DNA from: an uncultured Deinococcales bacterium
Lineage (GTDB): Bacteria; Deinococcota; Deinococci; Deinococcales; JAAFIG01
Direction: 5' to 3'
DNA: 64,000 nucleotides
Assembly (NCBI GenBank): GCA_964244895.1
Contig: CAXTKV010000001.1
Coordinates: 810 to 64,809, forward strand
Positions 8,224-64,000 of the stretch are shown here, piece after piece (within the stretch, counting starts at the first letter, position 1; every line of letters starts with the position of its first letter). A model generated the notes under the pieces. It had not been told where the DNA came from. It was given only the letters and a program-made list of their open reading frames with translations, and searched no databases. Both the position numbers and the translations under genes were made by a program.

Positions 8224-8272
8224 TTCATGAACTCAACCCCAGGCAATCGCATCTCGAGAGGTGCATTCGAAA

Positions 8273-9790: not shown

Positions 9791-9822
9791 ACCGCGCGAT
9801 CGGTTCAACCCAGAATCCCAGG

Positions 9823-9878: not shown

Positions 9879-9882
9879 CCCT

Positions 9883-9910
9883 CTGACTCCTGACCCCTGA
9901 CCTCTGACCA
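9883..9910. repeat. 7-bp tandem array, 4 units (CTGACNN)
   Basis: ctgactc ctgaccc ctgacct ctgacca, immediately after the IR copy. Confidence 0.85.
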
Positions 9911-18410: not shown

Positions 18411-18532
18411 GACAGGCCACCCGCCGATCAATCCCACGGCGCGAGACGGCTTTCACTGCCGTCCGTGTCGAGCCCGCTGAAAGCGGGTGTTCGGGCGAAT
18501 CATCCGTGCACGAACACCTCGAGGAGATCACC

Positions 18533-20318: not shown

Positions 20319-20331
20319 CAAGGAGAAGACC

Positions 20332-20928: not shown

Positions 20929-20960
20929 GTCCTCACTTGCCGCTCGAGGCCGATTCAGCC

Positions 20961-21006
20961 GACACCGTCCAGAGAGCAAAAACACGTCTGCGTCCTGGAC
21001 GGTGTT
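20961..21006. repeat. IR family copy
   Basis: GACACCGTCCAGAGAGCaaaaacacgtctGCGTCCTGGACGGTGTT. Confidence 0.75.
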
Positions 21007-21068
21007 CCCGAGCGCTCAAGGCTCGGGTTGACCGCGAGGGGCCTATCCCGAACTCGCGAGGAGCAACC

Positions 21069-27059: not shown

Positions 27060-28246
27060 AGCCTGAACCACCGCGTCAAGCGCGCCGCGCCGAACGCCAG
27101 CCCGATTGCGCCCATGAGGCTCAGCACCAGCACGTCCGGCAAAATGTCCGGCAAGCCCAATCCGGGCACGGACAGCGTCTGGAATCCCTCTATCGCCCAA
27201 CGGTTGTAGGTCAGCCTGGACAGTCCCTGCGCCAGTCCGGGCAGGGTTTCGATCGGCCAGATCGAACCGCCCAGCAGGCTCATGATCAGCACGAACACGA
27301 GTGAGAGCACGTTGACCTGCTCGTGGCTTTGCGCCAACCCGATGACCACGCCGCCGAAGCCCGCGGCGGCGGCGGCGGTCGCCACGATTCCGATAAAAGC
27401 CGGAAGCACCGGCCCCCAACTGACGCCGAACAGCAGCGAAGTCATGACGGCGAACAGCCCGAGTTGCAGAATCGCCAGTATGGTCAGGGCCAGGAATTTG
27501 GCCAGGATCAATCCGGTCGGCGTCAACGGCGCGCTCAGGAGTCTGGCGATGGTGCCGCGCTCGATCTCGTCCAGCAGGCCGCCCGCGCCGTTGGTGACGG
27601 ACAACAGCGTGAACATCACGCCGAAGGCGATCGCGTAGTACGCCAGCAAACCCTGCGAGCGCCCACTGGCGAGCGACCTCGAGATCTGCACGATCGGGTG
27701 CTCCAGCGCCGTCTGCACGCGCGGTTGGATCGCGGCGATGTAGCGCCCGAGCGTCGGCGCATCGGGGGGTTGCAGCGCCTGGACTGCGCCCAGCAGGGCC
27801 GAGCGTCCCGCCTCGAGCTGCGCCAGGTAGGCGCGCGTGACCTGCTCGATCACCAGCGCCCGCTCTCGGCTGGCGGCATCGCTGATGATCCGCACTTCGG
27901 CGCTGGCATCGGTGCGCAGCAAGGCGCGGCGCGCGCTATCGGGCAATTCGACCAGCATCACCAACCGGCCCTCGCGCACGGCGGCCTCGCCTTCGGTGGC
28001 GGTGAAACGCTGCACGGATGCCAGGTTGGCGTCCGTCAGGATCTTCTCGAGGCCGCGGCTGATGGAATCGTCCGCCGCCACCAGCCCGACCGGGACGGGA
28101 CTGATGGCCTTCGATCCGCCGAGCGCCGTGCCCAGGATCAGCGTCAAGATCAGCGGCAACAGGAGCGTCTGCACGAAAAACGCCCTGGAGCGCAACTGCG
28201 CCAGCAGATCGCGCTCCACGATGCGGTAGATCGCCCTAAAATTCAC
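27056..28246 (-). CDS. ABC-2 type transporter permease (first permease)
   Basis: ORF 27056..28297. The upstream 17 codons derive from the IR repeat, so GTG 28246 (VNFRAIYRIVERDLL) is preferred. The topology matches its paralogue. Confidence 0.8.
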   Translation of the reverse strand: MNFRAIYRIVERDLLAQLRSRAFFVQTLLLPLILTLILGTALGGSKAISPVPVGLVAADDSISRGLEKILTDANLASVQRFTATEGEAAVREGRLVMLVELPDSARRALLRTDASAEVRIISDAASRERALVIEQVTRAYLAQLEAGRSALLGAVQALQPPDAPTLGRYIAAIQPRVQTALEHPIVQISRSLASGRSQGLLAYYAIAFGVMFTLLSVTNGAGGLLDEIERGTIARLLSAPLTPTGLILAKFLALTILAILQLGLFAVMTSLLFGVSWGPVLPAFIGIVATAAAAAGFGGVVIGLAQSHEQVNVLSLVFVLIMSLLGGSIWPIETLPGLAQGLSRLTYNRWAIEGFQTLSVPGLGLPDILPDVLVLSLMGAIGLAFGAARLTRWFRL

Positions 28247-28270
28247 GCTGAACCCCAGCGCTCGAAATAC

Positions 28271-28320
28271 GAGAACACCGTGCTGGACGCAACCCAAGAG
28301 AGACTGTGCTGGACGGTGTT
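28271..28320. repeat. IR family copy (degenerate left arm)
   Basis: GAGAACACCGTGCTGGACGCaacccaagagagactGTGCTGGACGGTGTT. Confidence 0.7.
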
Positions 28321-28390
28321 TGCGTTACCGACTCGAGCTGTGAGCTTCGAGATCGCGCCAGCGTCTCCTCAAGCGCAAGGTTGAGCACCC

Positions 28391-43562: not shown

Positions 43563-43811
43563 ACAATAGATCATCGCCCCGACCGATAACTGATGGCGAT
43601 ACGAGAATTCACGTGCCGTACGCTTCTTCTGATTTCAAACGCCATCGCAGACGCGATTCCACGAATCAACGGCGTCCTGTGCCCGCGTTCGGTCGGAACC
43701 AGGCGCGGACGCACCGCTGAATTCGACGCACCGAACTTCCAGCGCGTTCAGACGCCGCGATCCGTTACGTTCGACACCGATGCTCGAGGAAAACTCGCGC
43801 GAGTTTCGAGA

Positions 43812-43860
43812 AGAACACCGTCCAGCACGCGGGATTATATTTGCGTGCTGGACGGTGTTC
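43812..43860. repeat. IR family copy (best consensus, perfect 18-bp arms)
   Basis: GAACACCGTCCAGCACGCgggattatatttGCGTGCTGGACGGTGTTC. Confidence 0.9.
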
Positions 43861-43957
43861 TTTCCCGGCGTGCGCCCAATGGCCGAACCCTGAAGGCCGA
43901 TCGTCAGAATCGGAGTTATTGAGAGTAGGGTACGGGTATGAACGCGACGTGCCGCCC

Positions 43958-44356
43958 GTGACCCTGGATCGCACGGTCGCTCACCGCGTGTTGGTGATCG
44001 ATGACGAACCCGGAATGCGCAGCCTGATGCGGCGCGGTCTCGGCATGGCCGGTTACGAGGTCGAAACTGCCGAGGGCGGCGAGGTCGGGCTCGAGGCCGC
44101 GACCCTGCGCCCACCGGATCTCGTGCTGCTCGATTTGATGATGCCCGGCCTGAACGGTTTCGATACCCTGGCGTTGCTGCTCGCGCTCGTGCCTCGCCCG
44201 AGAGTGATCGTCATGTCCGGCAGGGACGAACCGGAGGATCGCCAGCGCACGGCGGGTGCGGACGGTTTCCTGGTCAAGCCCGTCACGTTCGACGCGCTGC
44301 TCGAGGCGATCCGGGCTGGAATCGAAAACCCTTTAAGCGTGACGGCCTCGATGTGA
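43958..44356 (+). CDS. Stand-alone response regulator receiver protein
   Basis: ORF 43841..44356. The first codons overlap the IR repeat, so GTG 43958 is preferred. Motifs are VLVIDDEPGMR.., LVLLDLMMPGLNG and FLVKPV. The stop overlaps the next gene's GTG. Confidence 0.8.
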   Translation: MTLDRTVAHRVLVIDDEPGMRSLMRRGLGMAGYEVETAEGGEVGLEAATLRPPDLVLLDLMMPGLNGFDTLALLLALVPRPRVIVMSGRDEPEDRQRTAGADGFLVKPVTFDALLEAIRAGIENPLSVTASM

Positions 44357-47300
44357 AGAAGAAACCGTCGCCTCCTGCGACTGGGCTGACCGCACGGGGC
44401 GCGGCGGCAGGTAAAACCGATCTGCCAATCAAAGCCCCAAAGAAGCCCACGAGCGGCGCTCGAGCCGGGGCGCGATCGGTCGCGAACGATGCCCTGCCGG
44501 TGGTGGTCGGAATCGGCGCGTCGGCGGGTGGACTCGAGGCGTTTTCCAGGCTGCTGACCGCGTTGCCAGCCGATACGGGCATGGCGTTCGTGCTCGTCCA
44601 GCACCTCGACCCGAACCACGAAAGCGTCCTGAGCGAATTGCTGGCCCGCACCACCAGCCTGCAGGTATCCGAAATAAAGGACAGACAGAACCTCGAGCCC
44701 AACCGCGTCTACGTGATCCCGCCGAACACCAACCTGGCCGTCCAGCGCGGAATTCTACGGCTCTCGCCGCGCACGGCTGGACGCGGCTTCCACCGTCCCA
44801 TCGACGATTTTCTGCGCTCCCTGGCCGAGGATCGGGGCCACCGCGCGATCGGCGTGATCCTCTCCGGCACTGCCTCGGATGGCACGCTTGGGCTCGAGGC
44901 GATCAAGGCCGAAGGAGGCATCACCTTCGCGCAGGACGAAGCCACGGCGCGCTTCGACTCGATGCCGCACAGCGCCGTCGCCGCCGGGGTGGTGGATTTC
45001 GTGCTGCCGCCCGAAGGGATCGCCGCCGAACTCGCGCGCATGGCGAATGAACCCTACCTGACGAACCCGCCCGAGATCGAACGTTCGCAGCTTCCCACCA
45101 CGCGGAACGCATCTGCCAAGCCGATCACCGGTCCGAGCCCCAAAGCGGCGGGCAACACCGACGAGGACGGCTTCAGGCGCATCCTGCAACTGCTGCACGA
45201 TGTCAGGGGCGTGGACTTCTCGCTGTACCGTTCGACCACCATCCGGCGGCGCATCGACCGGCGCATGCTGCTGGACAACGTCCCCTCGCCGTTGCGTTAC
45301 AGCGAACGCTTGCGCGCGCACCCGAAGGAACTCGAGGCGCTCTATCAGGATTTGCTGATCGGCGTGACCAGCTTTTTTCGCGACCCGCAGACCTTCGAGT
45401 TCTTGCAGCGCGAGGTCTTCCCGCAACTCGTCAAGAACCGCACCGCCGACGAGGCCGTGCGCGTCTGGGTGAGCGGCTGCTCGACCGGGCAGGAAGCGTA
45501 TTCGCTGGCGATGGCCTACCTGGAATTTGCGGCGCAGGCGGGGGTCAACGTCCCGCTGCGGGTTTTTGCCACCGACCTGAACGAGGCGATGCTCGAGCGG
45601 GCGCGCGCCGGACTGTACGCGGAAAGTTTGATGCACAACGTCTCGAAGGAGCGCCTGAAGCGTTTTTTCACCGAAGAGTCCGGCAGCTACCGCATCTCCA
45701 AATCGGTGCGCGAACTGGTGGTCTTCGCGCACCACAACGTCTTCGCCGATCCGCCCTTCTCGCACATGGACGTGATCAGTTGCCGCAACCTGCTGATCTA
45801 CCTCGAGCCGACCCTGCAGAGCCGGGTCATCCCGACCTTCCATTACGCCCTCAAACCCGGCGGTGTGCTGGTGCTGGGCGCCTCCGAAACGGTCGGTCGC
45901 CACACGGATTTGTTCGCGACGCTGGACAGCCGTTGCAGGGTTTACACCAAGCTCCGAGTGACGACCAAAATTCCTCGGCCTGCACCTGCGATCCCTTTCG
46001 TGGCTCCTACCGCGGCCAGGTACGGGTATGAGCGAACAGTGTTGACCGCAGATGCCCCCGACGTGGACGCGCTACGCGAGGCTGACCGCGTGGTGCTCGC
46101 GCGGTACGCCCCGGCGGGCGTGGTGGTCGATGCGACCCTCGAGATCGTCCAGTTTCGCGGCATGACGGGTCGGTATCTCGAGCCCCAGAGCGGCAAGGCG
46201 AGCTTCAATCTGCTCAAGATGGCGCGCGAGGGCCTGATGTTGCCCCTGCGCGCGCTGATCGAACGCGCCAGACACGAAAACCGGGCCGTGCGCGAGGAGG
46301 GTGTGCGCTTTCAGCGCGATGGGCACGCAGAGACCGTGAACCTCGAGGTGGTACCGCTCCGAGCGCCACCCAGCCTGCTGGTGCTGTTCGAGGCTCCGGC
46401 GCCGCACGCTGCAAACCCGGCGTTGGAGCCTCCGGAACCCAAGCGCAAATCGAAAAAAACCGCTGATCGAGCGCAGCCTGCGGCTGACAGCGAGGCCGCC
46501 GATGGGGTTCGCCAGGTCGAGGGACTTCAGCGCGAGTTGCTCGAGACCCGCGATTACCTGCGCTTCATTCAAGAACAGGGCGAGGCCGCCAACGAGGAAC
46601 TCCAATCCACCAACGAGGAAGCGCAATCCGCCAACGAGGAAATGCAGAGCCTCAACGAGGAACTCGAGACCGCCAAAGAGGAACTCGAGTCCAGCAACGA
46701 GGAGATGCGCACCATCAACGAGGAACTGAACGAGCGCAACGCTGAACTGCGCCACCTCAACGACGATCACCTGAACTTCCAGGCCAGCAGCGAACTGGCG
46801 ATCGTCGCGATCAGTACCGACCTGAGCGTGCGGCGGTTCACACCGCAGGCGGAACTGGTGCTCGGCCTGCGCGCCGGCGACATCGGGCGACCGATCGGGC
46901 ACGTCCGACACGGGCTCGACTCGCCCGATCTGCCCAGTCTGGAGGCGCTGATCGCGGAAGTGATCCAATCTGAAAGCCCGACAGACCGCGAGGTGCGCGA
47001 CCGCGATGGCCGATGGTTCCTGATGCGGGTTCGCCCGTACCGGACGCTCCAGAACCACATTGACGGCGCGCTGCTCGTGCTCTTCGGTATCGACGCGCTC
47101 AAGCGCGCCGAACTCGAGCGCGAACGCCTGCAGCACGAGACCGAAGTGGCCTTCGAGAGCCTGGGCGACGGCCTGATCGCCCTCAACCGCGACTGGACGG
47201 TGACCTACATCAACACCGCCGGGGCGCGCCTGGCCGGACTGGCGCGCGAGGCGATGCTCGGCGGCAACTTCTGGGCGTTGTTCCCGGAGCTTTCGGAATC

Positions 47301-48216
47301 GATCTTCGGTCCCACCTACCGCAAGGCCATGACCGAGCGGGTGGCCGTCGAGCTCGAGGCGAACTACGCCCCACTCGAGACCCAGTTCGAGATTCGCGCC
47401 GTGCCGGTCGAAGCGGGAATCTTGGTGCTGTTCCGCGACGTGACCGACCGCCGCCGGGCCGAACTGATCGTCGAAGAAACCCAGGTGCAACTTCGCGCCC
47501 TATCCGAGAGCCAACGGCGCTTCCTGGCGGATGCCGCGCACGAACTGCGCGCACCTTTGGCGGTGATCCAGGGCAACCTCGAGGTGATCGAGCGATACCC
47601 GAACATGCTCCCCGATGAGCGCGCCGAAGCCGTGACCGAGAGCGCACGCGCCGCCACCCGCCTCGGGCGGCTGGCGAACGATCTGCTGTCGCTGGCGCGC
47701 GGCGATGCCGGGGACGGGCTGCGGCTCGAAGCCCTCGAACTCGCCCCGATTCTCGAGGAGACGCTGCACGAACTGAGCCGCCTGACCGAGGGCCTGCGCC
47801 TCGAATCCGGTGCGCTCGAGCCGTGCACCGTGCTGGGCGACCGCGATAAACTCAAGCAGCTCGCCCTGATCCTGCTCGACAACGCCATCAAGTACACCCC
47901 GGCGGGTGGGCGCGTCTCGCTCGAGTTGCACCGCCAGGAAACCCAGGCGGAGTTCCGGATATCGAACACCGGCCCCGCCATCAGCCCAGAGGATCTGGAA
48001 CGGGTCTTCGAGCGCTTCTACCGCACCGACGCGTCTCGCTCGCGCCAGACGGGCGGTACGGGGCTCGGCCTGCCGATCGCGCGGTGGATTGCGGGCCAAC
48101 ACGGCGGAACGGTCAAACTCGAGAGCGAACCGGGCGTGGGCACGACCGCCATCGTGCGGCTACCGCTGGTACACGATACCGATGGTGCTGCTTCGATTCA
48201 GCCCGTGCTGAGCTGA
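44353..48216 (+). CDS. CheB-methylesterase / CheR-methyltransferase / PAS / histidine kinase hybrid
   Basis: 1287 aa. The CheB-like region is VVGIGASAGGLEAFSRLL..FVLVQHLDP. The CheR-like region is TSFFRDPQTFEF..RVWVSGCSTGQEAYSLAM. A coiled coil NEELQSTNEEAQSANEEMQSLNEELETAKEELESSNEEM precedes the PAS modules. The H-box is FLADAAHELRAPL and the ATPase region is GGTGLGLPIARWI. Confidence 0.9.
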   Translation: MKKKPSPPATGLTARGAAAGKTDLPIKAPKKPTSGARAGARSVANDALPVVVGIGASAGGLEAFSRLLTALPADTGMAFVLVQHLDPNHESVLSELLARTTSLQVSEIKDRQNLEPNRVYVIPPNTNLAVQRGILRLSPRTAGRGFHRPIDDFLRSLAEDRGHRAIGVILSGTASDGTLGLEAIKAEGGITFAQDEATARFDSMPHSAVAAGVVDFVLPPEGIAAELARMANEPYLTNPPEIERSQLPTTRNASAKPITGPSPKAAGNTDEDGFRRILQLLHDVRGVDFSLYRSTTIRRRIDRRMLLDNVPSPLRYSERLRAHPKELEALYQDLLIGVTSFFRDPQTFEFLQREVFPQLVKNRTADEAVRVWVSGCSTGQEAYSLAMAYLEFAAQAGVNVPLRVFATDLNEAMLERARAGLYAESLMHNVSKERLKRFFTEESGSYRISKSVRELVVFAHHNVFADPPFSHMDVISCRNLLIYLEPTLQSRVIPTFHYALKPGGVLVLGASETVGRHTDLFATLDSRCRVYTKLRVTTKIPRPAPAIPFVAPTAARYGYERTVLTADAPDVDALREADRVVLARYAPAGVVVDATLEIVQFRGMTGRYLEPQSGKASFNLLKMAREGLMLPLRALIERARHENRAVREEGVRFQRDGHAETVNLEVVPLRAPPSLLVLFEAPAPHAANPALEPPEPKRKSKKTADRAQPAADSEAADGVRQVEGLQRELLETRDYLRFIQEQGEAANEELQSTNEEAQSANEEMQSLNEELETAKEELESSNEEMRTINEELNERNAELRHLNDDHLNFQASSELAIVAISTDLSVRRFTPQAELVLGLRAGDIGRPIGHVRHGLDSPDLPSLEALIAEVIQSESPTDREVRDRDGRWFLMRVRPYRTLQNHIDGALLVLFGIDALKRAELERERLQHETEVAFESLGDGLIALNRDWTVTYINTAGARLAGLAREAMLGGNFWALFPELSESIFGPTYRKAMTERVAVELEANYAPLETQFEIRAVPVEAGILVLFRDVTDRRRAELIVEETQVQLRALSESQRRFLADAAHELRAPLAVIQGNLEVIERYPNMLPDERAEAVTESARAATRLGRLANDLLSLARGDAGDGLRLEALELAPILEETLHELSRLTEGLRLESGALEPCTVLGDRDKLKQLALILLDNAIKYTPAGGRVSLELHRQETQAEFRISNTGPAISPEDLERVFERFYRTDASRSRQTGGTGLGLPIARWIAGQHGGTVKLESEPGVGTTAIVRLPLVHDTDGAASIQPVLS

Positions 48217-52003: not shown

Positions 52004-55000
52004 TCAGGTGATGGGCTGGTTCACCACGAAACCTTCCATCGTCTGAGGTAAGAACTCACCGATCTGCTCCAACCTCGAGCGTCCATCGCGAAACAATCGG
52101 CGCGCGCTTCGCGCATCGCCCGCAACCTCGAGCGCCTGAACGACCGAGCGCAGCGTATCGAGGTCGTAAGGTTCCATCTCGCACAGGATCGCGCCGATCC
52201 GGGCGATTTCTCGAGGCTCGATTGGGTCGGACTTCTCGATGGCGGAGCGTAAACCGAGCGTCAACGCCTCGCGTACCTCCAGCCGCCAACCCTCGTGAAA
52301 CCCATCCAGGTACGCGCCGCGCCAGAGGCTCGAATCACCCGATTGCAGAACGTCTTCCGCGTCGCTTGAAACAGCCCCGAGTGCGTAACCGTTCGGTGTG
52401 CTGATGATGCTCTCCGCCCCGAGGCTCGATCGGATCATGTAGACCTGCTGTTTGAGGGAGTTTCTGGCCTCCGGTTCGGGCGCGTCCGAACCGAGCGCAT
52501 CGATCATTTCGAGCGCGCTCGCCTCACTCCGACCGGCGATCCGGGTTTCTAAGAGGTACGCCAGGATCTCGAGGCGCTTGCGGGCGCGCGTTGGCACGGG
52601 TTGACCGTCTCGCTCGAGCCTCACGGTGCCGAGAACCTCGAGTCGAACCGAAGGGCGGTCTTCCCGATAAGAATCAGAACCATTCGCGTCAGACGCGAGT
52701 TCGGGCCATTGCCTCTGCGCGGCGATAAGCGTCTCCATCAGCCCGCGCTCGCGGAACCACTCGAGCAGTTCCAGGCCACGCTGGCGATCTCGCACGAGTC
52801 GGGCGCAGGCGAGTTCAGCCTCGCGACGGTACTCGAGTACCTGCGTACTTTGGATCGCGTCCTTCCACCGACTGAGCGCTGCATCAATCTGAGCGTTCGC
52901 CTCGAGCGCCACCGCCAGAGCGACGTTGCAGGCGAAAGCGTCATCCTCAGAATTCAAGCCGAGGCCCCGCGCTTCCTGCGCCAGCGCGAGTGCCCGCGCA
53001 GGATCGCCAGCCCACGCCTCGACCCGTGCGGCGGCGGGGAGCGCCCCGCCGAGGCATCGAGGGTTGGCCAGTTCACGCGCGTGTTTGACGGCATCCCGTG
53101 AGAATTTCAGGGCGAGCGCACCACCGTGCGGTGGACGCCACTGGGCGTAGAGCAATCCAAGGCTCCACTCGGCGTTTGCCAGGGCGTGCGTGACCTCGAG
53201 GCGTGAGAGTGTCTCGTAGCCTTCGAGCATGATGGTTTCGGCCTCGGTGAATCGTCCCAGCCGCGCGAGGATCGACCCGAGGGCCGTCCGGGCGTTCGCC
53301 CCGTACTGATAGTTACCCGCCTGATCCATCAGTTCGATGGCCTCGTTGAGGCTCTTGATTGCGTCCTGGTACCGACCGAGCCGGGTGAGGTTAAACGCGC
53401 GGTTGTAGTGGCTGGAAGCCAGGTTGGCGCTCCGAGAGGCCACTCGAGCCAGGGCCAGACCCGAGTCGTGCAACCGCTGAGCTTCCTCGAGTTGACCCTG
53501 CTCGGATCGGATGAACCCGAGCATCCCCAAACTGATGGCGCGGTGGGTCGCAGAGAGGTCGATCGTCTCGAGGGCCTGAGCAATCAGGATCTCAGCGTTC
53601 TCAAAATCGCCCAGGTTGACGTAGACTTCCGCCGCATAAGAAATGTTTCGGGGGAACTCGACCAGTTCTGGATGGTCACGCCAGGTCTGTGACGCTTCGA
53701 CCGAGCGGTGGCTTCGCGTCTGGGCGCGAAACACGATGTTCACCCAGCGGGCTTCGGTTTGCTCGACCTCAGGCAATCCGGCGATCAGGGTTTTGACCTC
53801 CTCGACCTTGCCCATGATGGCGAACGCCATCGCCAGCCCGTACCGGGCGTCGCGGTTGCACGGTTGCGCCCCGAGCGCCAGTTGCAGGAGGCGCACGCGC
53901 TGGCGGTGCGAGTCACCCGGCTGAAGCCACTGAACAGCCTCGAGCGCCAAGCGCGAGCGTTCTTCGCCCGTCGAGCGCTCAGCGGCCAGGCCCAGCAGGT
54001 GCGCGGCGGCGTTCAGATCGCCCGCCTCGCGCAGTTGGCGTCCGACCCGTTCGAGCCGCATGACCACCTCCGAAGGCTCGAAGCCCGCGTCGTCAACATA
54101 GTCCGCCGCCTTCACCGGGTCAATCACCTCGAGTTCGCTCAGGGCCCGCGCAGCGTAACGAGTGCGTCGAGCCATCGGAATGTCGCGCCTGGTGATCTCG
54201 GCAAACAATGGGTGCGCGAACCGCGAGTTGTTCAGCACGCCGCCCTGCTCGAGCGCAGTCGCCGCGACCAGAAGCGGCTCGCGACCAATCCCTGCGACCT
54301 TCGCCCAGACCGCATGGAGCACCTCAGGTGCGAGTTCGCCCGGCAGAATGGCCCTCGCCTCGAGCGCCGCACGGGTTTCTGGGGTCTCGGTCAGACTCAA
54401 GGTCAATTGCGAGATGATCGCATCGACCGTGATCGGCATGAAGTCTTCGGGCGGTGCGCGCCAGTGCCAACGTTCGCCATCCGACCACATGAACCCTTGT
54501 CGGGTCAGGTACCGCAGGAACTCGAGCGCGAACAACGGGTTGCCGCGCGTGCGCCCGAACACCCACTCGGCTCCATCCTGTGGCGGTGCTGATTTCAGCT
54601 CCTGTTCCAGCACCGCCGACGTTTCCGCCATTGAAAGCGGCTCGAGCCGATGATTGTGGAACGGTTCAGGCAATTCGGCGCGACTCGTGACGAGCAGACC
54701 CACGCCGCGCGTGCGACGCACGGCCCAAGCGAGCGCTTCGATCACCTCGAAGCGCTCAGAATCGGCCTCGTGAACATCCTCGAGGTGCAGCACGAACGGG
54801 GCGAGCGCACCGAATACCGCAGCGAGCGTCGCCGCAAACGTGCCCGTTTCGAGCGGCTCGCCGCGCTCGAGCCGCGTGAGGTGCACCCGCGCCCAGGCGG
54901 GCAGGGCTGGGGCTTGCGGCAAGGCTGCCACGAACTGCGCGCTGCTCAGGGTCGCGTGCAACGCGAGGTGGCGGCACGGCACGCGCTCGAGGATCGCTTG

Positions 55001-55252
55001 GGCGGCGTGCGTCTTGCCGATGCCGGGTTCGCCCCAAATACCCAGGGCCACACCAATGCGCCGGGACACGACCGCGACCAGTTGCCGCGAGATGACCTCC
55101 TCGACTTCTCGCCTCACGCGCCATCCCCTCCGCCACGAACGGTTTGCTCGCAGAAGGCTCGTCCGGTCTTCTCGGACTTCTCCACCTTCAAAGTCGAGGG
55201 CAGCATTGGAGATGGAAAAAGCCCGTACCACACCTTGAACAGAATCTCTCAC
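52004..55252 (-). CDS. Large STAND-type ATPase regulator: AAA_16 ATPase - TPR array - C-terminal winged-helix + BTAD (SARP) module
   Basis: 1082 aa. Walker A is IWGEPGIGKTHAA and Walker B is PFVLHLEDVH. GRTRGNPLFALEFLRYL is a LAL/MalT-like signature. A long TPR region follows. The C-terminal LEVLGTVRLERDGQPVPTRARKRLEILAYLLE.. plus BTAD-like helices resemble the N-terminus of CDS 15454..17628. The exact start is uncertain. Confidence 0.85.
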   Translation of the reverse strand: MRDSVQGVVRAFSISNAALDFEGGEVREDRTSLLRANRSWRRGWRVRREVEEVISRQLVAVVSRRIGVALGIWGEPGIGKTHAAQAILERVPCRHLALHATLSSAQFVAALPQAPALPAWARVHLTRLERGEPLETGTFAATLAAVFGALAPFVLHLEDVHEADSERFEVIEALAWAVRRTRGVGLLVTSRAELPEPFHNHRLEPLSMAETSAVLEQELKSAPPQDGAEWVFGRTRGNPLFALEFLRYLTRQGFMWSDGERWHWRAPPEDFMPITVDAIISQLTLSLTETPETRAALEARAILPGELAPEVLHAVWAKVAGIGREPLLVAATALEQGGVLNNSRFAHPLFAEITRRDIPMARRTRYAARALSELEVIDPVKAADYVDDAGFEPSEVVMRLERVGRQLREAGDLNAAAHLLGLAAERSTGEERSRLALEAVQWLQPGDSHRQRVRLLQLALGAQPCNRDARYGLAMAFAIMGKVEEVKTLIAGLPEVEQTEARWVNIVFRAQTRSHRSVEASQTWRDHPELVEFPRNISYAAEVYVNLGDFENAEILIAQALETIDLSATHRAISLGMLGFIRSEQGQLEEAQRLHDSGLALARVASRSANLASSHYNRAFNLTRLGRYQDAIKSLNEAIELMDQAGNYQYGANARTALGSILARLGRFTEAETIMLEGYETLSRLEVTHALANAEWSLGLLYAQWRPPHGGALALKFSRDAVKHARELANPRCLGGALPAAARVEAWAGDPARALALAQEARGLGLNSEDDAFACNVALAVALEANAQIDAALSRWKDAIQSTQVLEYRREAELACARLVRDRQRGLELLEWFRERGLMETLIAAQRQWPELASDANGSDSYREDRPSVRLEVLGTVRLERDGQPVPTRARKRLEILAYLLETRIAGRSEASALEMIDALGSDAPEPEARNSLKQQVYMIRSSLGAESIISTPNGYALGAVSSDAEDVLQSGDSSLWRGAYLDGFHEGWRLEVREALTLGLRSAIEKSDPIEPREIARIGAILCEMEPYDLDTLRSVVQALEVAGDARSARRLFRDGRSRLEQIGEFLPQTMEGFVVNQPIT

Positions 55253-55952
55253 CCCTTATCAACGACCGGCTAGTAACGCGCCCTGAACCCGACCGGGTTC
55301 ACGATCATGCGCCCATCGTGCGTTTCGTATTGCCGCATTGAGGTCACCATCGGCACAGCGTTCAGGGAGCACGCGTTCAGGTGGCACGCGACCGATACCA
55401 ACCAAAGCACGCGACAAAGCGAGCGGGAAGAGACAAATGCTCTCACGGAGTCCAGAGCCGAAGCCTGAGATGTTAGCCCGAAACCGACGCGCACGATCAG
55501 GAACCCAGGGTTCCAAAACCGCCCTCGATCCGCTCGGCTCAGAGCAAGGCTCGAGTGCGCATTTCTTTGGACTGGCTCCACACCCCACATTGAGGGTTCA
55601 CGCTCACCGCGCAGTACGCATTGATGATTCGACATCGGTCAGCCCCGATTCTCTAAGCAATTCCGACTTTTGCTCGAAACCCATCGAGAACAGATACGGG
55701 CTTTTGATGGACTTTCGCGGCTTCAGCCTGGTGCGTCCGGGCGGTTATAGGTCAGGGCACTTTTAGAGTCAGTGGAAAATGGTTGAGGCGATCCGAAGAT
55801 TGATCGCAGATCCTCGTTTTGCATCGCTTGAGCTACGCTCACGAGAACGCTGTCCGGCACTGAAGTGAATATTGTTTCCTCCACCATCATTTCCCCTAGA
55901 TCCTGATTCGTGACAAAACTCCTGACAGCCGAGACCATCAGGAGCATGTATG

Positions 55953-55997
55953 TGGTCGGGGTGGCCAGATTTGAACTGACGACCACTTGACCCCCAG
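55953..55997 (-). other. tRNA-Pro-like 3' fragment (anticodon loop to CCA), candidate att site
   Basis: The minus strand reads CTGGGGG-TCAAG-TGGTC-GTCAG-TTCAAAT-CTGGC-CACCCCG-A-CCA. This gives a good T-arm, a 3' acceptor strand CACCCCG, discriminator A and CCA, as in bacterial tRNA-Pro. No matching 5' acceptor strand, D-arm or 5' anticodon stem lies upstream. Confidence 0.5.
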
Positions 55998-56115
55998 GCA
56001 GCCCTCGGGTGGTGTTCTATAGTGAGGTGTCGTGACGATTTGCTGTCCCTGACACAACCTACAGGACTCGAGCTGGCTTGGGCGTGACCTCAATTGCGGC
56101 GCCTTTTCCCAGGAT

Positions 56116-56139
56116 CTGCAGTCAAACCTGCGGTCAAAC
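56116..56139. repeat. 12-bp tandem direct repeat x2
   Basis: ctgcAgtcaaac ctgcGgtcaaac. It is flanked by the 13-nt direct repeat cctcaattgc(g/a)gc at 56088-56100 and 56199-56211. Confidence 0.8.
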
Positions 56140-56518
56140 AGAAATCCCATTGGGGCTGCCACGCTCGTAACAGACTTTGCCCCAGTGTTCGGCACACGTC
56201 CTCAATTGCAGCTTTGTTTGAGCTGAGGGCATCAGAGATCGACAGCGTGAACGCTGGACGCTGGCATAACAATCACAGCGTTTACGCGATTTCGCCGATG
56301 ATGTGCGATGTACCGTAGGAGACTCACTATTGTTAGCAGCAAGACGATAGTTTCCCCGTGTCTTGATTTCCTGCAACAAACGCAGGTTCGGTGAAACACC
56401 TGAGACATGGGAATCTTGGGCCGGATATCTCCGGCGCTCGCAGAACCTGATAGGCATGGCGCAAGTCGTCGTTGCACACAATGCGCCGAGTTAGAGCGCT
56501 ATTCTGAAAGCACCCACG

Positions 56519-57997
56519 ATGATGGATTACGACCAATTGCGATTCGATCTGGAAAACGCGCCCAGCATGAAGCTGTTGCGAAGTCAACACGCACCGCTGA
56601 TCATTGCTTTCCTATACGCACAGTTCAAGAGCTCGCAACACTTGAGCGTGCCATTCGATGATCTCGCATTGCAGCTCGAGCGATTCCTTGAGGTGTTGAA
56701 TGAACAACAGCCCACGGCAAGCCGTTCGGCATCGGCTTACCTCAAAGAGTGGGCGGACGAAGCGCACCGCATCGTTCGTATCACGTCACGCGCTCACGGG
56801 GACTTTGTCGAATTGACCGCCGACGCGGAACGTGCCATTGGCTGGGTCGAAGGATTGTACGGACGCGAGTTCGTCGGTACGGAATCGCGGTTTTTAGCAA
56901 TCTTCAACCTGCTTGAGGAAATCATCGCCCGGAGTACGGCGGATGTCCCAACACGCCTCGAGCAGCTCGAACGGCAAAGGGACTCATTGCAACATGAGAT
57001 TGACTCGATCCGCGCGGCTGGAAGGGTTGAGCCGTTTTCAGACACGCAGATCAGAGAACGGTTCTTTCAGGCCGGAGAGGTCGCGCGCGAACTCGTGCGA
57101 GATTTCGCCGCCGTTGAGCAGAACTTCCGGATGATCGTCAAGGCCTTGCAGGAGCGGCAGGTGCAGCCTGGCACGCGAAAAGGGGCACTGGTTGGCTATG
57201 TCTTAGATGCCGATGAAGAATTGCGCGAATCAGATCAGGGGCGCAGTTTTTATGCCTTTTGGGAATTCCTGATGTCGCCCAGCAAGCAAGACGAACTCTC
57301 CGAGCTGCTCGAACGGGTTTACGCGCTGCCTGTTATCCGCGATGTGGCTCGAGACAACACTTTGCTGCGTCATGTCAGCGGAGCGTTGATCGAGGCGGGT
57401 GGCAAGGTTGTGGGTTCCAACCAGCGGCTGGCTGAGCAATTGCGCCGTTTGCTGGACGAGCACATTCAGGCGGAGCGTCGCCGGGTGCGCGAACTGATCG
57501 AGGACATCAAACGTATTGGTCTGCGTCTAGTGGATGAACAGCAGCCCGTGGTTTTTCTGGAATTGGAAGGTTCTCCTGAAGTCAACATGGTGATGGAAAA
57601 AGCCTTGTGGGAGCCTGGCGTTGCGCCCGTCATTGCGACCCGACCCCTCGAGGGTGACCTCGATTTGACCGAAGCCGACTTTGGCGCGTTGTTCGAGCAA
57701 TTCTCGGTAAGCGAAAAGTGTTTACGCGACCGCGTCGCAACGCTGCTCACAACCCAACCGAGCTGCACCCTGCTGGATGTGCTTGAGCATTTTCCGCTCG
57801 AGCAGGGCTTGGCTGAAGTCATCACGTACATGGCGATCGCCAGCCGGGATGGTCAGCACGAGGTTTCGGAAACGCAGCATGAAAAGATCTTCTTGCAATC
57901 TGCACCGTTTGGGGATGATCTTGAACGAAACAGCTCGAGTTCACATCGGCAGGTCAGTGTTCCCAAAATCACCTTTAGGAGTTTAGATGCCCGTTGA
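56519..57997 (+). CDS. jetA: Wadjet JetA (DUF3375, kleisin-like subunit)
   Basis: 492 aa. MMDYDQLRFDLENAPSMKLLRSQHAPLIIAFLYAQFK.. matches the DUF3375 N-terminus as I recall it. It is the first gene of a four-gene overlapping operon. Confidence 0.88.
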   Translation: MMDYDQLRFDLENAPSMKLLRSQHAPLIIAFLYAQFKSSQHLSVPFDDLALQLERFLEVLNEQQPTASRSASAYLKEWADEAHRIVRITSRAHGDFVELTADAERAIGWVEGLYGREFVGTESRFLAIFNLLEEIIARSTADVPTRLEQLERQRDSLQHEIDSIRAAGRVEPFSDTQIRERFFQAGEVARELVRDFAAVEQNFRMIVKALQERQVQPGTRKGALVGYVLDADEELRESDQGRSFYAFWEFLMSPSKQDELSELLERVYALPVIRDVARDNTLLRHVSGALIEAGGKVVGSNQRLAEQLRRLLDEHIQAERRRVRELIEDIKRIGLRLVDEQQPVVFLELEGSPEVNMVMEKALWEPGVAPVIATRPLEGDLDLTEADFGALFEQFSVSEKCLRDRVATLLTTQPSCTLLDVLEHFPLEQGLAEVITYMAIASRDGQHEVSETQHEKIFLQSAPFGDDLERNSSSSHRQVSVPKITFRSLDAR

Positions 57998-58577
57998 CCT
58001 TCCCGTCCCACACGCGAGTGCAATGATTCGCTTACTTCAAGGCGCGATCTTCAGCGACGATGCGAACGCTTGGAATCTTTTACTGGCACACCAGAGGGCG
58101 GTGCAGAATGACTTCGCTCGGATTGGTTTGGAATTGTACCTGAACGAACCCGATGGCTTCGCGTTTGTGCGCCAACCTGAACCCGAGGATGCCGAAAGCA
58201 CCCTGCCGCGTCTGACCCGGCGCGACCGCCTGAGCTATCATGTCACGCTGCTATGCGTGTTGTTGCGAGAACGACTCGAGCAGTTCGAGGCAAGTACACC
58301 AGAATCGGATCGGTTGCTGGTTTCGCAGGACGAGTTGCGCGACCTCTTGCGTTCCTTCTTGCCGGAGCGCAACGATGAGCGTGCACTCAACAAGAAGCTC
58401 GACGAGACCGTCAACCGCGTTTTAGAGTTGGGCTTCCTCAAACGCTCGAGCGGCTCGTCGGGTTTGCTCGAGGTGCGGCGCATCATCAAAGCACGGATTG
58501 ATTCAGAGCGTTTGGCAGAAATCAAAGGCAAGCTCGAGTCGGTGCGCGAAGATGAAGGTTCCCCCGATGCTGTTTGA
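57987..58577 (+). CDS. jetB: Wadjet JetB (DUF4194, KITE-like subunit)
   Basis: 196 aa. It contains ..IRLLQGAIFSDDANAWNLLLAHQRAVQNDFARIGLELYLNEPDGFAFVRQ.. and overlaps jetA by 11 nt. Confidence 0.88.
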   Translation: MPVDLPVPHASAMIRLLQGAIFSDDANAWNLLLAHQRAVQNDFARIGLELYLNEPDGFAFVRQPEPEDAESTLPRLTRRDRLSYHVTLLCVLLRERLEQFEASTPESDRLLVSQDELRDLLRSFLPERNDERALNKKLDETVNRVLELGFLKRSSGSSGLLEVRRIIKARIDSERLAEIKGKLESVREDEGSPDAV

Positions 58578-61500
58578 GTCTGAGAACCGACTCAGGGACG
58601 GCTTTCGCCTCGAGACCCTCGAGGTTTTCAACTGGGGAACTTTCAACCGTCGCGTTTGGACGCTCGAGATGCAGTCAGGGACGGCACTCCTGACTGGAGA
58701 GAACGGTTCGGGGAAATCCACTCTTGTGGACGCGCTCTTGACCCTGCTCGTACCGGGCCGAATCCGGCATTACAACCAAGCGTCCGGCGCGTCTGGCAAA
58801 CGCGAGCGTGACGAGAGAAGCTATGTTCTGGGCGCGTACAAACGCACGACGGACACGGATTCCGCAGGCAGCAGCGTGTGTTACTTGCGCGGCAAGGACA
58901 CGTACAGCGTGCTGCTGGCGCGTTTTACGAACGAGGCTTTAAAACAGACCGTGACCTTGGCGCAGGTCTTCTACTGGAGCAGGGACGACGAATTGGATAA
59001 ATTCCACGTCGTCGCCCCACAAGCCCTCTCGATTCACGAGCATTTCACCGTCCAGACTGGGTTGGACGAACTCAGGAAGCGTTTGCGCGGGCTGGGTTTG
59101 GGTGTTTACGACGAATTCAGCAAATACAGCCGCGACTTTTTGAAGCGCTTCGGTCTGCGTTCGGACAAGGCGCTCGACCTTTTCAACCAGACCGTCTCGA
59201 TCAAGGAGATCGGCGGGCTGAACGATTTCGTGCGCCAACACATGCTCGAGAAAACCAATGCCAGCGAACAGATCGCGGCGCTGCGCGAGAACTACGAAAA
59301 CCTGACCCGAGCGCACGACGCGATCCTCAAAGCTCAGCAGCAAATCACGCGCCTCGAACCGCTGCTTGGGCAAACCGAGCAGCACGATCAACTTCAATAC
59401 CGTATCGCGGAAACCGAGCAGAGCGCCGAAGCCGCACCGTTCTTTTTTGCAGCACGAAAACTCGCGTTGCTCGAGGGGGATTTAAACGCTGCCGCGCTAG
59501 AACTTGCTGTAGTTCAGAGCAACCGCGATGACATCGCCATGCGCCTCAAGCAACTCCGTGCAGACGAGTACATTCTACGTGACGCGCTACGTCAGGACAG
59601 CGCCGGGCAACAGCTCGAGAAGTTACGGATTGAACTCGAGTACGTCAAGAAGGAGTCTGGTCGCAAACGAGGGAATGCACTGCATTACGATCAGACCGCC
59701 CGACGCTTGAACGTGGCTCCGCTCAACAGCGAAACTGAGTTCCACGCCACCGCGCAACAACTCCCGAGCGAACTCGATGCGTGCGCAGTACAGCTCGAGG
59801 CGTTGACCCGTGATCGTGACGCTCTGATTTCGCAGAAGGACCGACTCGAGGTCGAGTTCACCCGCGCCCGCCAGGAACTCGATTCCCTCCAGAGGCGCAC
59901 GAGTCAGGTTCCGCTCGAGGACGTACGGCTCCGCGAGGATATCGCTCGGGCGCTCAATCTGAACGAGGCTGACATGCCGTTCATCGGTGAATTGCTGCGC
60001 GTGCGGTTGGATGCCCGAGATTGGGAGCCTGTCATCGAACGGTTGCTGCGCAGCTACGGTCGGCAGTTGCTCGTACCAGAAGCGCATTACCGCTCCGTCA
60101 GCGCACACGTGAACGACGTAAACTTGCGCGGACGGCTCGTGTACCACCGCGTCCCGGATCGCGCCGACTCTTCGCGGAGAAAGCCAGTGACCCCAGATGC
60201 ACTGGTCGCCAAGCTCGAGGTCAAACCAGATCATCCTTTGCGCGATTGGTTGATCGCCGACCTGGAAGATCGCTGGGACTACGTGTGTTGCGAGTCGTTA
60301 GAACGCTTCGCTCGAGAACCCAGGGCGATCACCCTGAGCGGGCAGGTCAGGCACAACCAGACGCGTCATGAGAAAGACGACCGCAACACGCTCGGGAATC
60401 GCGCACAATACGTTCTCGGTTGGGACAACCGCGACAAGGTTCGCGTGCTTCAGGAGCAACTCGGTGAACTTGGGCAAAGGATCAGCGCGGTACAACAACA
60501 AATTGGTAGCATCGAAACCGAACAGAAAGCCATTCAGAACCGCGACAAGTACCTGCGGGAACTGCTCAAATTCGAGCTGTACACCGACCTCGATTGGCGC
60601 ACCGAGGAGCGCCGAGCCGAGGAACTCGAGGCGCAACGCCAAGCGCTCACCGCAACAGCGGAGAATCTCCAGCGCATAGAGCGGCAACTCGAGCAGTGCC
60701 AAGCGGATATTGAGAGCGCAGCGAACGCGCAAAAGCACTTGGATGGCGAGATTGGCAAGATCCAAGGGCAAAAAGAAAATTTCGAGCGGCAAAAGCAGAT
60801 CAGCCAAGGATTCCTCGAGACGACAGAAGCTGAGGTTTGGCACGCCCACAGCGCCCGCATCGAGTCCGAGGTGGTAGGTCGTGACGTGACGCTCGAGACG
60901 CTCGACTCGCTTCGGACAGAGATTGAAAGGCGGTTGAACAACAGCGCCAACACGCTCAAAGGTCAAGCCAACAAACTTACCGAGAGCATCGTCCTCAGGA
61001 TGAACGATTTTCGCCGCGATTACCCAGCCGACACCGCCGACATGGATGCCAGCGTAGACGCCGCCCCCGAGTACCGACGAATGCTCGAGCGGCTGACGAG
61101 CGATGACCTGCCCACCTACCAAAAGCGCTTCAAAGAATGGATGGAGGGCAAGGCGACCGATTCCATCGTCGGCTTTCAAGGCACGCTCGAAACGCAGGAA
61201 AAAGCGATCCGCACGAGTGTTGACGCACTGGACGAATCATTGCACAGCATTGACTACACGCCCGCCACATACATTCACCTGCGCGCCGAACGAAACCGCG
61301 ACAAGGAAATCACCGAATTCCGGCAACTGCTGCGCGCCTGCATTCCCGACGTGGGACGGCGCACGCCCGAAGCGAACGAGCAGGGGTTTTTGCGGATTCG
61401 CGCTTTGATCGCACGTTTTGAAACCGAGGCGCGCTGGACCGCTAAGGTCACCGATGTCCGCAACTGGCTCGAGTTTGCGGCGGAGGAACGCTACCGCGAG

Positions 61501-61899
61501 GACGATACGCAAAAAGCGTACTACTCGGACTCGAGCGGCAAGTCCGGTGGGCAGAAAGCCAAGCTCGCGTACACGATCCTGGCTTCAGCCATCGCCTACC
61601 AGTACGGTCTGGATCAAGATGAACACCGCGCAAAGGCTTTTCGCTTGGTGATCGTGGATGAGGCGTTCAGCAAGTCCGACGAGCAGAACGCGCGTTACGC
61701 GATGCAGCTGTTTGAGCAATTGCAACTTCAATTGCTGGTGATCACGCCCCTCGACAAAACACACGTGGTCGAGCCGTTCATCTCGTCCTGCCATTTCGTC
61801 AACAACACACCTGAGGAGGACGACTCGAAGGTCTTCAACTTGAGCATCGAAGCGTATCAGCAGCGTAAACAAAGCCTTTACACGGTAAACAAGGCGTGA
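58567..61899 (+). CDS. jetC: Wadjet JetC (SMC-like ABC ATPase)
   Basis: ORF 58498..61899. The start is ATG 58567 (MLFESENRLRDGFRLETLEVFNWGTF) or ATG 58552. Walker A is GENGSGKSTLVDAL. A long coiled-coil middle region is followed by the signature-like SGGQKAKLAY and Walker B FRLVIVDEAFSKSD. Confidence 0.9.
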   Translation: MLFESENRLRDGFRLETLEVFNWGTFNRRVWTLEMQSGTALLTGENGSGKSTLVDALLTLLVPGRIRHYNQASGASGKRERDERSYVLGAYKRTTDTDSAGSSVCYLRGKDTYSVLLARFTNEALKQTVTLAQVFYWSRDDELDKFHVVAPQALSIHEHFTVQTGLDELRKRLRGLGLGVYDEFSKYSRDFLKRFGLRSDKALDLFNQTVSIKEIGGLNDFVRQHMLEKTNASEQIAALRENYENLTRAHDAILKAQQQITRLEPLLGQTEQHDQLQYRIAETEQSAEAAPFFFAARKLALLEGDLNAAALELAVVQSNRDDIAMRLKQLRADEYILRDALRQDSAGQQLEKLRIELEYVKKESGRKRGNALHYDQTARRLNVAPLNSETEFHATAQQLPSELDACAVQLEALTRDRDALISQKDRLEVEFTRARQELDSLQRRTSQVPLEDVRLREDIARALNLNEADMPFIGELLRVRLDARDWEPVIERLLRSYGRQLLVPEAHYRSVSAHVNDVNLRGRLVYHRVPDRADSSRRKPVTPDALVAKLEVKPDHPLRDWLIADLEDRWDYVCCESLERFAREPRAITLSGQVRHNQTRHEKDDRNTLGNRAQYVLGWDNRDKVRVLQEQLGELGQRISAVQQQIGSIETEQKAIQNRDKYLRELLKFELYTDLDWRTEERRAEELEAQRQALTATAENLQRIERQLEQCQADIESAANAQKHLDGEIGKIQGQKENFERQKQISQGFLETTEAEVWHAHSARIESEVVGRDVTLETLDSLRTEIERRLNNSANTLKGQANKLTESIVLRMNDFRRDYPADTADMDASVDAAPEYRRMLERLTSDDLPTYQKRFKEWMEGKATDSIVGFQGTLETQEKAIRTSVDALDESLHSIDYTPATYIHLRAERNRDKEITEFRQLLRACIPDVGRRTPEANEQGFLRIRALIARFETEARWTAKVTDVRNWLEFAAEERYREDDTQKAYYSDSSGKSGGQKAKLAYTILASAIAYQYGLDQDEHRAKAFRLVIVDEAFSKSDEQNARYAMQLFEQLQLQLLVITPLDKTHVVEPFISSCHFVNNTPEEDDSKVFNLSIEAYQQRKQSLYTVNKA

Positions 61900-63046
61900 T
61901 TACACCCTCGGAAATTGAAGCCAAAGCGCGTCGCATGTACCCGGTGTTCCTGCGGGCATGGCTGCGCGACGAGGCATTCACGCCGATCACCCTGCCCGTC
62001 GGAAAGCTGCCCGACGGGTATCTCGAGCTGCACGCGACAGTGAGCCGATTGCTCCAGGGTGAACGGCGCAGGCAAGATGCGGGCTACCGCGTCGAATCCC
62101 AAACCCGTCAAACCCGCGTACACGGATCGCAAACGCTGCCCGCGCGGGTCGTCATCGGCACACCTGAAGACCTGCTCGCCCTTGCTGGGAAGCGCCCGGA
62201 ATTCGAGGCATTCCAGCGCGATATCGCCCTGATCCGGCGTGAGCAACCCGCGCTCGAAGCGTGGCTCGAGGCGAACGTGACGAGCGTGATCGCGCATCAC
62301 GGCGTTTGGCTGGAATTGCTGCGCGTTTGCACGTACTTTCAAACGAACCCGCGCCCAAATCAGTATGCTCGAGCGCTGCCGATTGCAGTCCACACGAAAT
62401 TCATTGAGGGTCACACCGGGATTCTGCGCCGTCTGCTTGACGCGCTCCTGCCACCAGAAGCGATCCGCGCCGAGGAATCCTCCTTTGAGCGGCGTTTCGG
62501 GTTCGCGAGGACGAACCGCTCGTGCGGTCGCGGTTGCTTGATCCTGAGCTTCACCACCGATTCGGTTTGAACCTGCGCGACGTGAGCCTGCCCGTGAGCG
62601 AATTCGTGAATCTCGAGTGGCGCGGCGTGCGCTGCCTCATTGTGGAAAATAAGAAAACCTTCTTGACGTTGCCGTTCCTGCCCGACACAGTGGGCGTCTT
62701 TGGCAGCGGTTTCGGGGTTGAACTGCTCACGTCCGCCACCTGGCTTCAGGACTGCCCGATCCTGTACTGGGGCGACCTAGACGCACACGGTTTCGAGATT
62801 CTCTCGAAACTCCGCTCGAGTTTCCCCCAGACAGTTTCCGTGATGATGGACGCCGCGACTCTCGAGCAATTTAGGATGTTCATCGTGCCAGGAACGCCCT
62901 CCGCAACGCGTTCGCTGCCGCACTTGAAGCCTACTGAACACGAGGTCTTTGCTCGGCTCGCGCAATCCAGCCAGCGGCTCGAGCAGGAGCGCCTCGATCA
63001 CGCTTATGTCGTTGAGCGGCTCGGTTCTTTGATAAACGCGCTTTGA
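61896..63046 (+). pseudogene. jetD: Wadjet JetD (DUF3322 + Toprim/DUF2220 nuclease subunit) interrupted by a frameshift
   Basis: The gene reads as two ORFs in different frames, 61896..62570 (frame 0, starts ITPSEIEAKARRMYPVFLRAWL) and 62522..63046 (frame 2, contains YWGDLDAHGFEIL). Frame 2 is open from 62489. Joining ..SSFERRFGF with (R)EDEPLVRSRLLDPEL.. restores a protein of about 383 aa, the normal JetD length. Confidence 0.85.
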
Positions 63047-63197: not shown

Positions 63198-64000
63198 TCA
63201 CGCGCCGTTACCCGTTTCACCCTCAGCGCCATCGCCCGAGAGCAGCGCCTCGAGTTGCGCCACGCTCGGCAGCGTCCCCTCGAGTTCTGCAGGCAGTGCC
63301 TGGGACAGATCAAAGCTGGAGATGCCCATTGGTTGCGCTATGCCGCGCAGCGCGTACTCCACATCCGTGCGGTCGCGGTCCTTGCACAACACGATCCCGA
63401 TGCTCGGCGCATCACCGGGTGAGCGCAGCAGATCGTCCACGGCGGACAGGTAGAAGTTCATCTTGCCCGCGTACTCGGGTTTGAACTCCGTCATTTTCAA
63501 GTCAATCACCACGAAGCAGTGCAAGCGGTAATGGTAAAAAAGCAAGTCCAGGAAATCGTCTTTGCCATTGACCTCTATGTGATGCTGGCTACCGATGAAC
63601 GCGAAGCCCGCGCCTAACTCGAGCAGAAAGTTCTTGAGGTGCGCGATCAGCCCGCGCTCGAGGTCGCGCTCATGGGCTTCATCTCCCAGTGACAAAAAGT
63701 CGAAGTTGTACGGGTCTTTGAGGATCTGCGCGGCGAGTTCAGATTGCGGCGCGGGCAGGGCGCGGTCAAAGTTGTGAACCGCTCTGCCTTGACGCTCCAT
63801 CAAGCGCGTGGCGATTTGCGCCTCGAGGATCACCCGCGACCAGCCGTTCTGGATGCACGCTTTGGCGTACCACTCGCGCGACTCGAGGGAATCCAGCTTG
63901 TCCAGCAGGCGCACGTTGTGACCCCACGGCAATTGTCCAACAACCTGTTGGACAATTGCCTCGTCTGGGTACGCCTCGGCAAACGCTCTCATGTACAACA
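63198..64000 (-). CDS. DUF1016 (YhcG-like) PDDEXK-family nuclease, N-terminus outside the window
   Basis: It contains ..YAKACIQNGWSRVILEAQIATRLMERQG..LKDPYNFDFL..ERDLERGLIAHLKNFLLELGAGFAFIGSQHHIEV..DLLFYHYRLHCFVVIDLKMTEFKPEYAGKMNFYL.. The D..(D/E)xK core is visible. The reading frame stays open to base 64000. Confidence 0.85.
   Translation of the reverse strand, partial: LYMRAFAEAYPDEAIVQQVVGQLPWGHNVRLLDKLDSLESREWYAKACIQNGWSRVILEAQIATRLMERQGRAVHNFDRALPAPQSELAAQILKDPYNFDFLSLGDEAHERDLERGLIAHLKNFLLELGAGFAFIGSQHHIEVNGKDDFLDLLFYHYRLHCFVVIDLKMTEFKPEYAGKMNFYLSAVDDLLRSPGDAPSIGIVLCKDRDRTDVEYALRGIAQPMGISSFDLSQALPAELEGTLPSVAQLEALLSGDGAEGETGNGA

Follow-up and report, generated by a model that had tools for sequence, protein, structure and literature searches.

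A type I Wadjet operon with jetD divided between two reading frames at the boundary of its aCAP and Toprim domains

The type I JetABCD system of Escherichia coli GF4-3 (PDB 8q72, JetD(E248A); Liu et al. 2022 and Roisne-Hamelin et al. 2023, preprints) is encoded by the same four genes as the locus described here. In the E. coli system, neither JetABC alone nor JetD alone cleaves DNA; all four subunits are needed. In published structures of JetD and MksG, a rigid N-terminal unit formed by the arm and CAP domains (aCAP) is connected through a flexible hinge to a Toprim domain, which contains the active site and mediates dimerisation. The aCAP of E. coli JetD docks on the JetC head, and the JetD dimer spans the DNA held between two motors. 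Mutation of the aCAP pocket that receives F919 of JetC abolishes restriction in vivo.

The JetD encoded in the window (the whole 64,000-nucleotide stretch of DNA that was analysed) aligns with E. coli JetD over window residues 2-368 (E 2.4e-15), sharing the catalytic Glu (E248, equivalent to window E251), the D-x-D motif, and the order of aCAP followed by Toprim. The two differ in that E. coli JetD is one polypeptide, whereas the window gene is interrupted after codon 202, and their low identity is that of distant orthologues. The best match among solved structures is MksG, the nuclease of Corynebacterium glutamicum MksBEFG (PDB 8b7f; E 7.2e-22, residues 45-380). Its elongated N-terminal domain, flexible hinge and dimerising Toprim domain represent the layout expected for the window JetD. 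In contrast to the window protein, which is known from sequence only, MksG is intact and displays nuclease activity alone in vitro.

Broken Wadjet systems have also been described. Frameshifts in Wadjet genes are a familiar annotation problem, and the PADLOC paper includes a type I example in which jetC is frameshifted. Other examples are an SMC-subunit mutation in a laboratory strain of Mycobacterium smegmatis and a Clostridium cellulovorans mutant; in both of these, spontaneous Wadjet inactivation is associated with easier plasmid uptake. Spontaneous loss of Wadjet is already documented (PMC12287153). These examples resemble the window in that a small spontaneous lesion affects one subunit. 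However, they involve lesions in jetC/mksB or larger deletions, whereas the lesion in the window lies in jetD.

Operon layout and genomic surroundings

The window has a G+C content of 62.8% and contains several chromosomal housekeeping genes, namely proS, the ribosomal protein S1 gene, pnp, rpsO, glpX and tRNA-Leu. Based on Pfam and PADLOC profiles, positions 56519-63046 of the forward strand constitute a canonical operon for type I Wadjet, a plasmid-restriction system, with the gene order jetA-jetB-jetC-jetD:

56519-57997, forward strand: jetA, kleisin subunit, intact; 492 aa; Pfam DUF3375, E 5.7e-107, profile positions 4-474 of 474
57987-58577, forward strand: jetB, KITE/MukE-like subunit, intact; 196 aa; Pfam DUF4194, E 5.7e-38, full profile
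58567-61899, forward strand: jetC, SMC ATPase, intact; 1110 aa; PADLOC JetC1, 1245 bits, profile positions 11-1119 of 1123
61896-63046, forward strand: jetD, split; DUF3322 and JetD_C in two frames

The best PADLOC matches of the first three genes are JetA1 (E 2.9e-134), JetB1 (E 3.7e-58) and JetC1, all with near-full-length coverage. JetA is 491-494 aa long in relatives, and the jetC product also matches Pfam AAA_29 and SbcC_Walker_B (E 2.2e-21 and 2.1e-26), in line with an SMC-type ATPase that has P-loop and Walker B regions. All four genes are co-oriented and overlap by 11 nt (jetA/jetB), 11 nt (jetB/jetC) and 4 nt (jetC/jetD), and identical overlaps are found in relatives L001 and L004. 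The TTG at 58498, which a mechanical list of open reading frames (ORFs) gives as the start of jetC (1133 aa), is wrong. The true start is ATG 58567, as indicated by the 1110-aa product in the contig record and by relatives, whose JetC is also 1110 aa and has the same 11-nt overlap with jetB. As in relatives, jetD starts at a GTG that forms a 4-nt GTGA overlap with the jetC stop. The JetA, JetB and JetC matches, the gene order and the Toprim metal-binding residues are all those of a type I Wadjet. The exception is the expectation of JetD as a single polypeptide, because DUF3322 and JetD_C are encoded in two frames.

The DNA flanking the operon has features of its own. The ~1.2 kb directly upstream of jetA (55300-56500) has a G+C content of 0.55, compared to 0.63 for the window, and lacks tRNAs, Rfam matches and any ORF whose codon bias resembles that of coding sequence. 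This segment may serve as the promoter region or mark the edge at which the Wadjet island was inserted. Farther upstream, on the opposite strand, 52004-55252 encodes a protein of 1082 aa with an AAA_16 ATPase domain and many TPR repeats, of the large signal-transduction ATPase type. Downstream, a YhcG/DUF1016 PDDEXK-nuclease gene (63198-63998, reverse strand) converges on the end of jetD. It probably runs past the end of the window, since the match to its N-terminal domain begins at profile position 71.

Other observations concern more distant parts of the window. Just after proS, a 266-aa ORF without a Pfam match (3261-4058, forward strand) lies in a patch of low G+C (0.44) and may be foreign DNA or no gene at all. 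On the reverse strand, 6913-9910 encodes a conserved helicase-nuclease pair, comprising an XPB/ERCC3-type helicase (8273-9910) followed by a full-length DUF790 protein (6913-8232). The 1312-aa product of 20319-24257 (forward strand), encoded after a Big_5 Ig-like protein (17885-19606), has seven DUF5122 beta-propeller repeats together with Calx-beta and ZU5 domains and is probably a secreted or surface protein. At 43721-44356 (forward strand), a gene for a stand-alone response-regulator receiver shares a 4-nt GTGA overlap with 44353-48216 (forward strand), which encodes 1287 aa with CheB methylesterase, CheR methyltransferase, two PAS, HisKA and HATPase_c domains.

A missing base in codon 203 of jetD

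The two parts of jetD and the features around their junction, all on the forward strand, are as follows:

61896-62503, forward strand: codons 1-202 and the first two bases of codon 203, encoding the arm and CAP (aCAP) domain; GTG start; DUF3322
62486-62488, forward strand: TGA closing the C-terminal frame upstream of the lesion
between 62503 and 62504, forward strand: missing base (1-base deletion) in codon 203, placed by DNA alignment
62504-62570, forward strand: out-of-frame tail of the N-terminal product, ARTNRSCGRGCLILSFTTDSV, then TGA at 62568-62570
62504-63046, forward strand: codons 204-383 and stop in the shifted frame, encoding the Toprim nuclease domain; JetD_C
62507-62524, forward strand: fortuitous internal start candidate, with GAGGA at 62507-62511, a 10-nt interval and GTG at 62522-62524 (codon Val210)

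A first, sequence-only reading of this DNA had described a frame 0 that stops at 62570 and another frame that is closed by TGA 62486-62488 and then stays open to 63046, and both are seen in the sequence. Frame 0 (ORF 61896-62570) ends with AIRAEESSFERRFGFARTNRSCGRGCLILSFTTDSV (also written SSFERRFGFARTNRSCGRGCLILSFTTDSV) followed by the stop. The second frame, open across 62489-63046, continues with AAFRVREDEPLVRSRLLDPELHHRFGLNL (also given as AAFRVREDEPLVRSRLLDPELHHRFGL). The N-terminal piece matches Pfam DUF3322 (E 4.8e-41) and positions 1-205 of the 382-position PADLOC JetD1 profile, and it aligns without gaps with intact 383-aa orthologues. The C-terminal piece matches Pfam JetD_C (E 6.3e-45) and positions 201-380 of the same profile. 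Because these two adjacent ORFs complete one profile and abut at positions 201-205, the split is not a chance pattern. The out-of-frame tail has no similarity to homologues, which read REDEPLVR in its place. In the depositor's record, the two jetD halves appear as two "hypothetical" CDSs of 211 and 174 aa.

The same reading had proposed a single-base indel near 62500-62510, at the junction of the N-terminal and Toprim domains, and suggested alignment with intact JetD orthologues as a check. Nucleotide alignment with three intact 383-codon orthologues (P0001, P0002 and P0003; 78-80% identical) bears this out, locating the indel between 62503 and 62504, in codon 203. Where the window reads GGG-TT-CGC, the three relatives read GGG-TTG-CGC or GGG-CTG-CGC (Gly202-Leu203-Arg204), and across this junction these nearest relatives, each of exactly 383 aa, have the sequence SSFERRFGLREDEPLVR. 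Across 54 aligned homologues, G202 and L203 never vary and R204 hardly does. Given the invariance of Leu203, the lost base was most likely the G of a TTG codon for Leu rather than a C that would create Phe. The ancestral codon 203 would then have been Leu, most simply TTG. The repair suggested earlier, ttcCgcgagg, does restore the frame but places Phe where all homologues have Leu, which makes TTG the better reconstruction. With the extra base restored the junction reads GGGTTGCGC, whereas the deleted allele reads GGGTTCGC.

The immediate context of the lesion (GGGTT/CGCGAGG) contains no homopolymer or repeat tract, as found by inspection of 62400-62650. A phase-variable switch was considered and rejected, as this interval has no homopolymer or short tandem repeat at the indel. 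The deletion site lies at the centre of a GC-rich, imperfect 17-nt palindrome (76% complementary) at 62492-62519, and removal of the base generates a palindromic hexamer, TCGCGA, at 62503-62508. The palindrome might have played a part in the loss or miscalling of the base.

A minus-one shift within ~62499-62506 would restore the 383-aa product. Programmed recoding, through minus-one ribosomal frameshifting or transcriptional slippage over this interval, could in principle yield full-length JetD at a regulated level. This explanation is extremely improbable, since the site offers no slippery heptamer of the form X-XXY-YYZ and no homopolymer or repeat tract, and since the predicted fold of the next 96 nt is no more stable than that of shuffled versions (z = +0.75), 153 of 200 of which equal or surpass it. 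Moreover, the frameshift is absent from the three nearest relatives, and any shifted product would have the invariant Leu203 replaced by Phe or Val.

JetD relatives and the question of a two-piece nuclease

A homologue search with the conceptually joined JetD as the query recovered 2922 homologues, the best 120 of which were examined. Apart from one, all of these (119) are single proteins that contain both domains, with lengths of 376-491 aa that in almost every case fall within 376-398 aa. The sole exception, P0062 (211 aa, 100% identical), is the N-terminal half from the window's own contig, called from Met14. JetD is likewise one ORF of ~380 aa in the 32 loci that were fetched, comprising 17 genome and 15 metagenome loci. 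The named relatives belong to the Chloroflexota (Oscillochloris, Roseiflexaceae, Viridilinea, Ktedonobacteraceae and Anaerolineae). The nearest three, P0001, P0002 and P0003, come from uncultured organisms on Logan, JGI and ENA metagenome contigs. They span exactly 383 aa, align without gaps with the repaired window JetD at 78-80% identity and belong, like the window gene, to a jetABCD operon with identical gene overlaps. Unlike the window gene, they have a full Leu203 codon (TTG or CTG) and a single ORF.

The possibility raised at the outset, that close relatives share a true two-gene arrangement, fails on these data, because no relative is split among the 119 of 120 best homologues or the 32 loci. 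A conserved, naturally split JetD is rejected, with the nearest three relatives intact at codon 203.

A fortuitously functional two-piece JetD is a separate proposal. Here, aCAP and Toprim fragments would be made separately and assemble non-covalently into an active nuclease. The Toprim fragment would start at GTG 62522 behind GAGGA, or re-initiate at TTG 62567, which overlaps the stop of the N-terminal half as TTGA. The break falls between two structural domains that published structures show to be joined by a flexible hinge, and the dimer interface and the active site both lie within the Toprim domain. In addition, a plausible Shine-Dalgarno sequence precedes a GTG start at a distance of 10 nt, and the depositor's gene caller used GTG 62522 to obtain its 174-aa product. 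However, this candidate start signal is ordinary coding sequence that is present in intact relatives too. Because the same bases code for R-E-D-E-P-L-V in those relatives, GAGGA/GTG is not an evolved start signal. The uniformly unsplit relatives also speak against the proposal.

Structural considerations weigh in the same direction. The AlphaFold model of P0001, whose numbering equals that of the window protein, has a mean pLDDT of 91. It places residue 203 in an ordered coil (block pLDDT ~90) between a short helix (197-200) and a strand (209-214) that is the first strand of the C-terminal domain. Given this position between the domains, the frameshift parts them cleanly, yet it destroys the conserved junction motif. 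For a two-piece nuclease, this means loss of the invariant G-L-R motif in an ordered segment (pLDDT ~90), and the product of GTG-210 would start partway through the first beta-strand of the C-terminal domain. Furthermore, the Toprim piece would lack the aCAP tether to JetC, a contact that is essential in vivo. Taken together, a functional two-piece JetD is very unlikely.

In a broader version of this idea, the split is real and tolerated. It would leave either a two-piece nuclease made through GTG 62522 or a nuclease-less JetABC with an aCAP stub in the JetC docking site, kept for acting on plasmids by loop extrusion or compaction without cutting. This version is judged highly improbable.

Recent mutation or consensus error, and consequences for the system

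Apart from the missing base, jetD has the properties of a functional gene. Adding one G yields 1152 nt and 383 codons without an internal stop, in gapless alignment with the three relatives, and the repaired JetD is 80% identical to P0001. All 59 observed invariant positions other than Leu203 are kept (29 in the N-terminal half and 30 in the C-terminal half), and five changes, mostly conservative, occur at nearly invariant positions. Toprim residues were assigned by alignment to E. coli JetD(E248A) (8q72), MksG (8b7f) and JetD (7til). The catalytic Glu251 (in IVENK), which aligns with E248 of E. coli JetD, and Asp294/Asp296 of the D-x-D motif (in GDLDAHG) are intact. For each half, comparisons of the window with its relatives give pairwise dN/dS values of 0.17-0.24, and comparisons among the intact relatives give 0.14-0.31. 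Long-term pseudogene decay is ruled out by these normal dN/dS values and the kept invariant residues in both halves. Because neither half shows relaxed constraint, the lesion is either very recent or artefactual.

The favoured explanation, which is given about an even chance, is that jetD carries a real, very recent one-base deletion in the third base of the Leu203 codon. Translation from the jetD start would then give a 224-aa product containing the complete arm and CAP (residues 1-202) and a 22-residue nonsense tail, while the Toprim nuclease domain would be untethered or not made at all. The JetABC motor would still load on and extrude DNA but could not cut it, amounting to a knockout of the defence system. 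The predicted loss of cutting follows from the requirement for all four subunits and for the aCAP-JetC contact that places the Toprim dimer. By analogy with E. coli, cleavage would be lost and the JetABC motor retained.

The same evidence suits a different origin of the lesion, in which jetD is an intact 383-codon gene in the organism and one G went missing from the deposited consensus. The chance of such an error is put a little short of even. The lesion is a single base, and the repaired gene, free of gaps and stops, is indistinguishable from an orthologue that is functional and under selection: it retains every invariant residue, the catalytic Glu and Asp-x-Asp among them, and neither half has an unusual dN/dS. 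There is no second lesion in jetD, as expected of a consensus error in a functional gene. The site also lies inside the imperfect palindrome at 62492-62519, and GC-rich palindromes can mislead consensus calling. The error rates of metagenome assemblies allow for one indel per 64 kb.

The quality of the surrounding sequence argues against such an error. Approximately 45 ORFs were checked in the 64-kb window, including eight of 700-1400 aa and the housekeeping ProRS, S1, PNPase and GlpX, and all are full-length profile matches. No other frame-broken gene was found among them, which indicates a low indel rate and an assembly that is not indel-rich. Two candidates for further frame breaks were dismissed. 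The receiver ORF at 43721-44356, considered as a second frameshift, is part of a normal gene pair with a GTGA overlap, and the overlapping ORFs 25854-27935 and 27056-28324, considered as a frame split, are both complete and encode ABC-2 permeases in tandem. The lesion does not lie in a homopolymer, the usual context of long-read indel errors, and together with the clean consensus this weighs against a long-read error signature. In addition, true pseudogenisation is frequent in defence genes.

Each product of the locus occurs on one 65,718-bp NCBI/ENA contig only, which is in keeping with a consensus error. Exact-product look-ups of both halves, P0062, JetA, JetB and JetC yielded no second assembly of the same strain. 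No metagenome contig matched a DNA pattern that fits either allele, and the relatives recovered by protein-guided scanning of genome and metagenome contigs all had 55% identity or less. With only one assembly of the strain, recent mutation is put only slightly above consensus error.

The locus is a new orthologue of a well-characterised system, and nothing in it departs from the known picture. If the missing base is an error, a single 383-aa JetD should replace the 211- and 174-aa CDSs of the record. In both cases, defence-system callers that depend on an intact JetD will overlook or misclassify the locus. Because the lesion lies exactly at the aCAP/Toprim boundary, the natural allele could serve as a construct for studying the covalent linkage of the JetD domains. 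However, that question is independent of this locus, and the significance of the finding extends little beyond annotation. If the deletion is real, the operon would be a freshly inactivated Wadjet, its host should be more permissive to plasmids, and the locus would illustrate the rapid turnover of defence systems.
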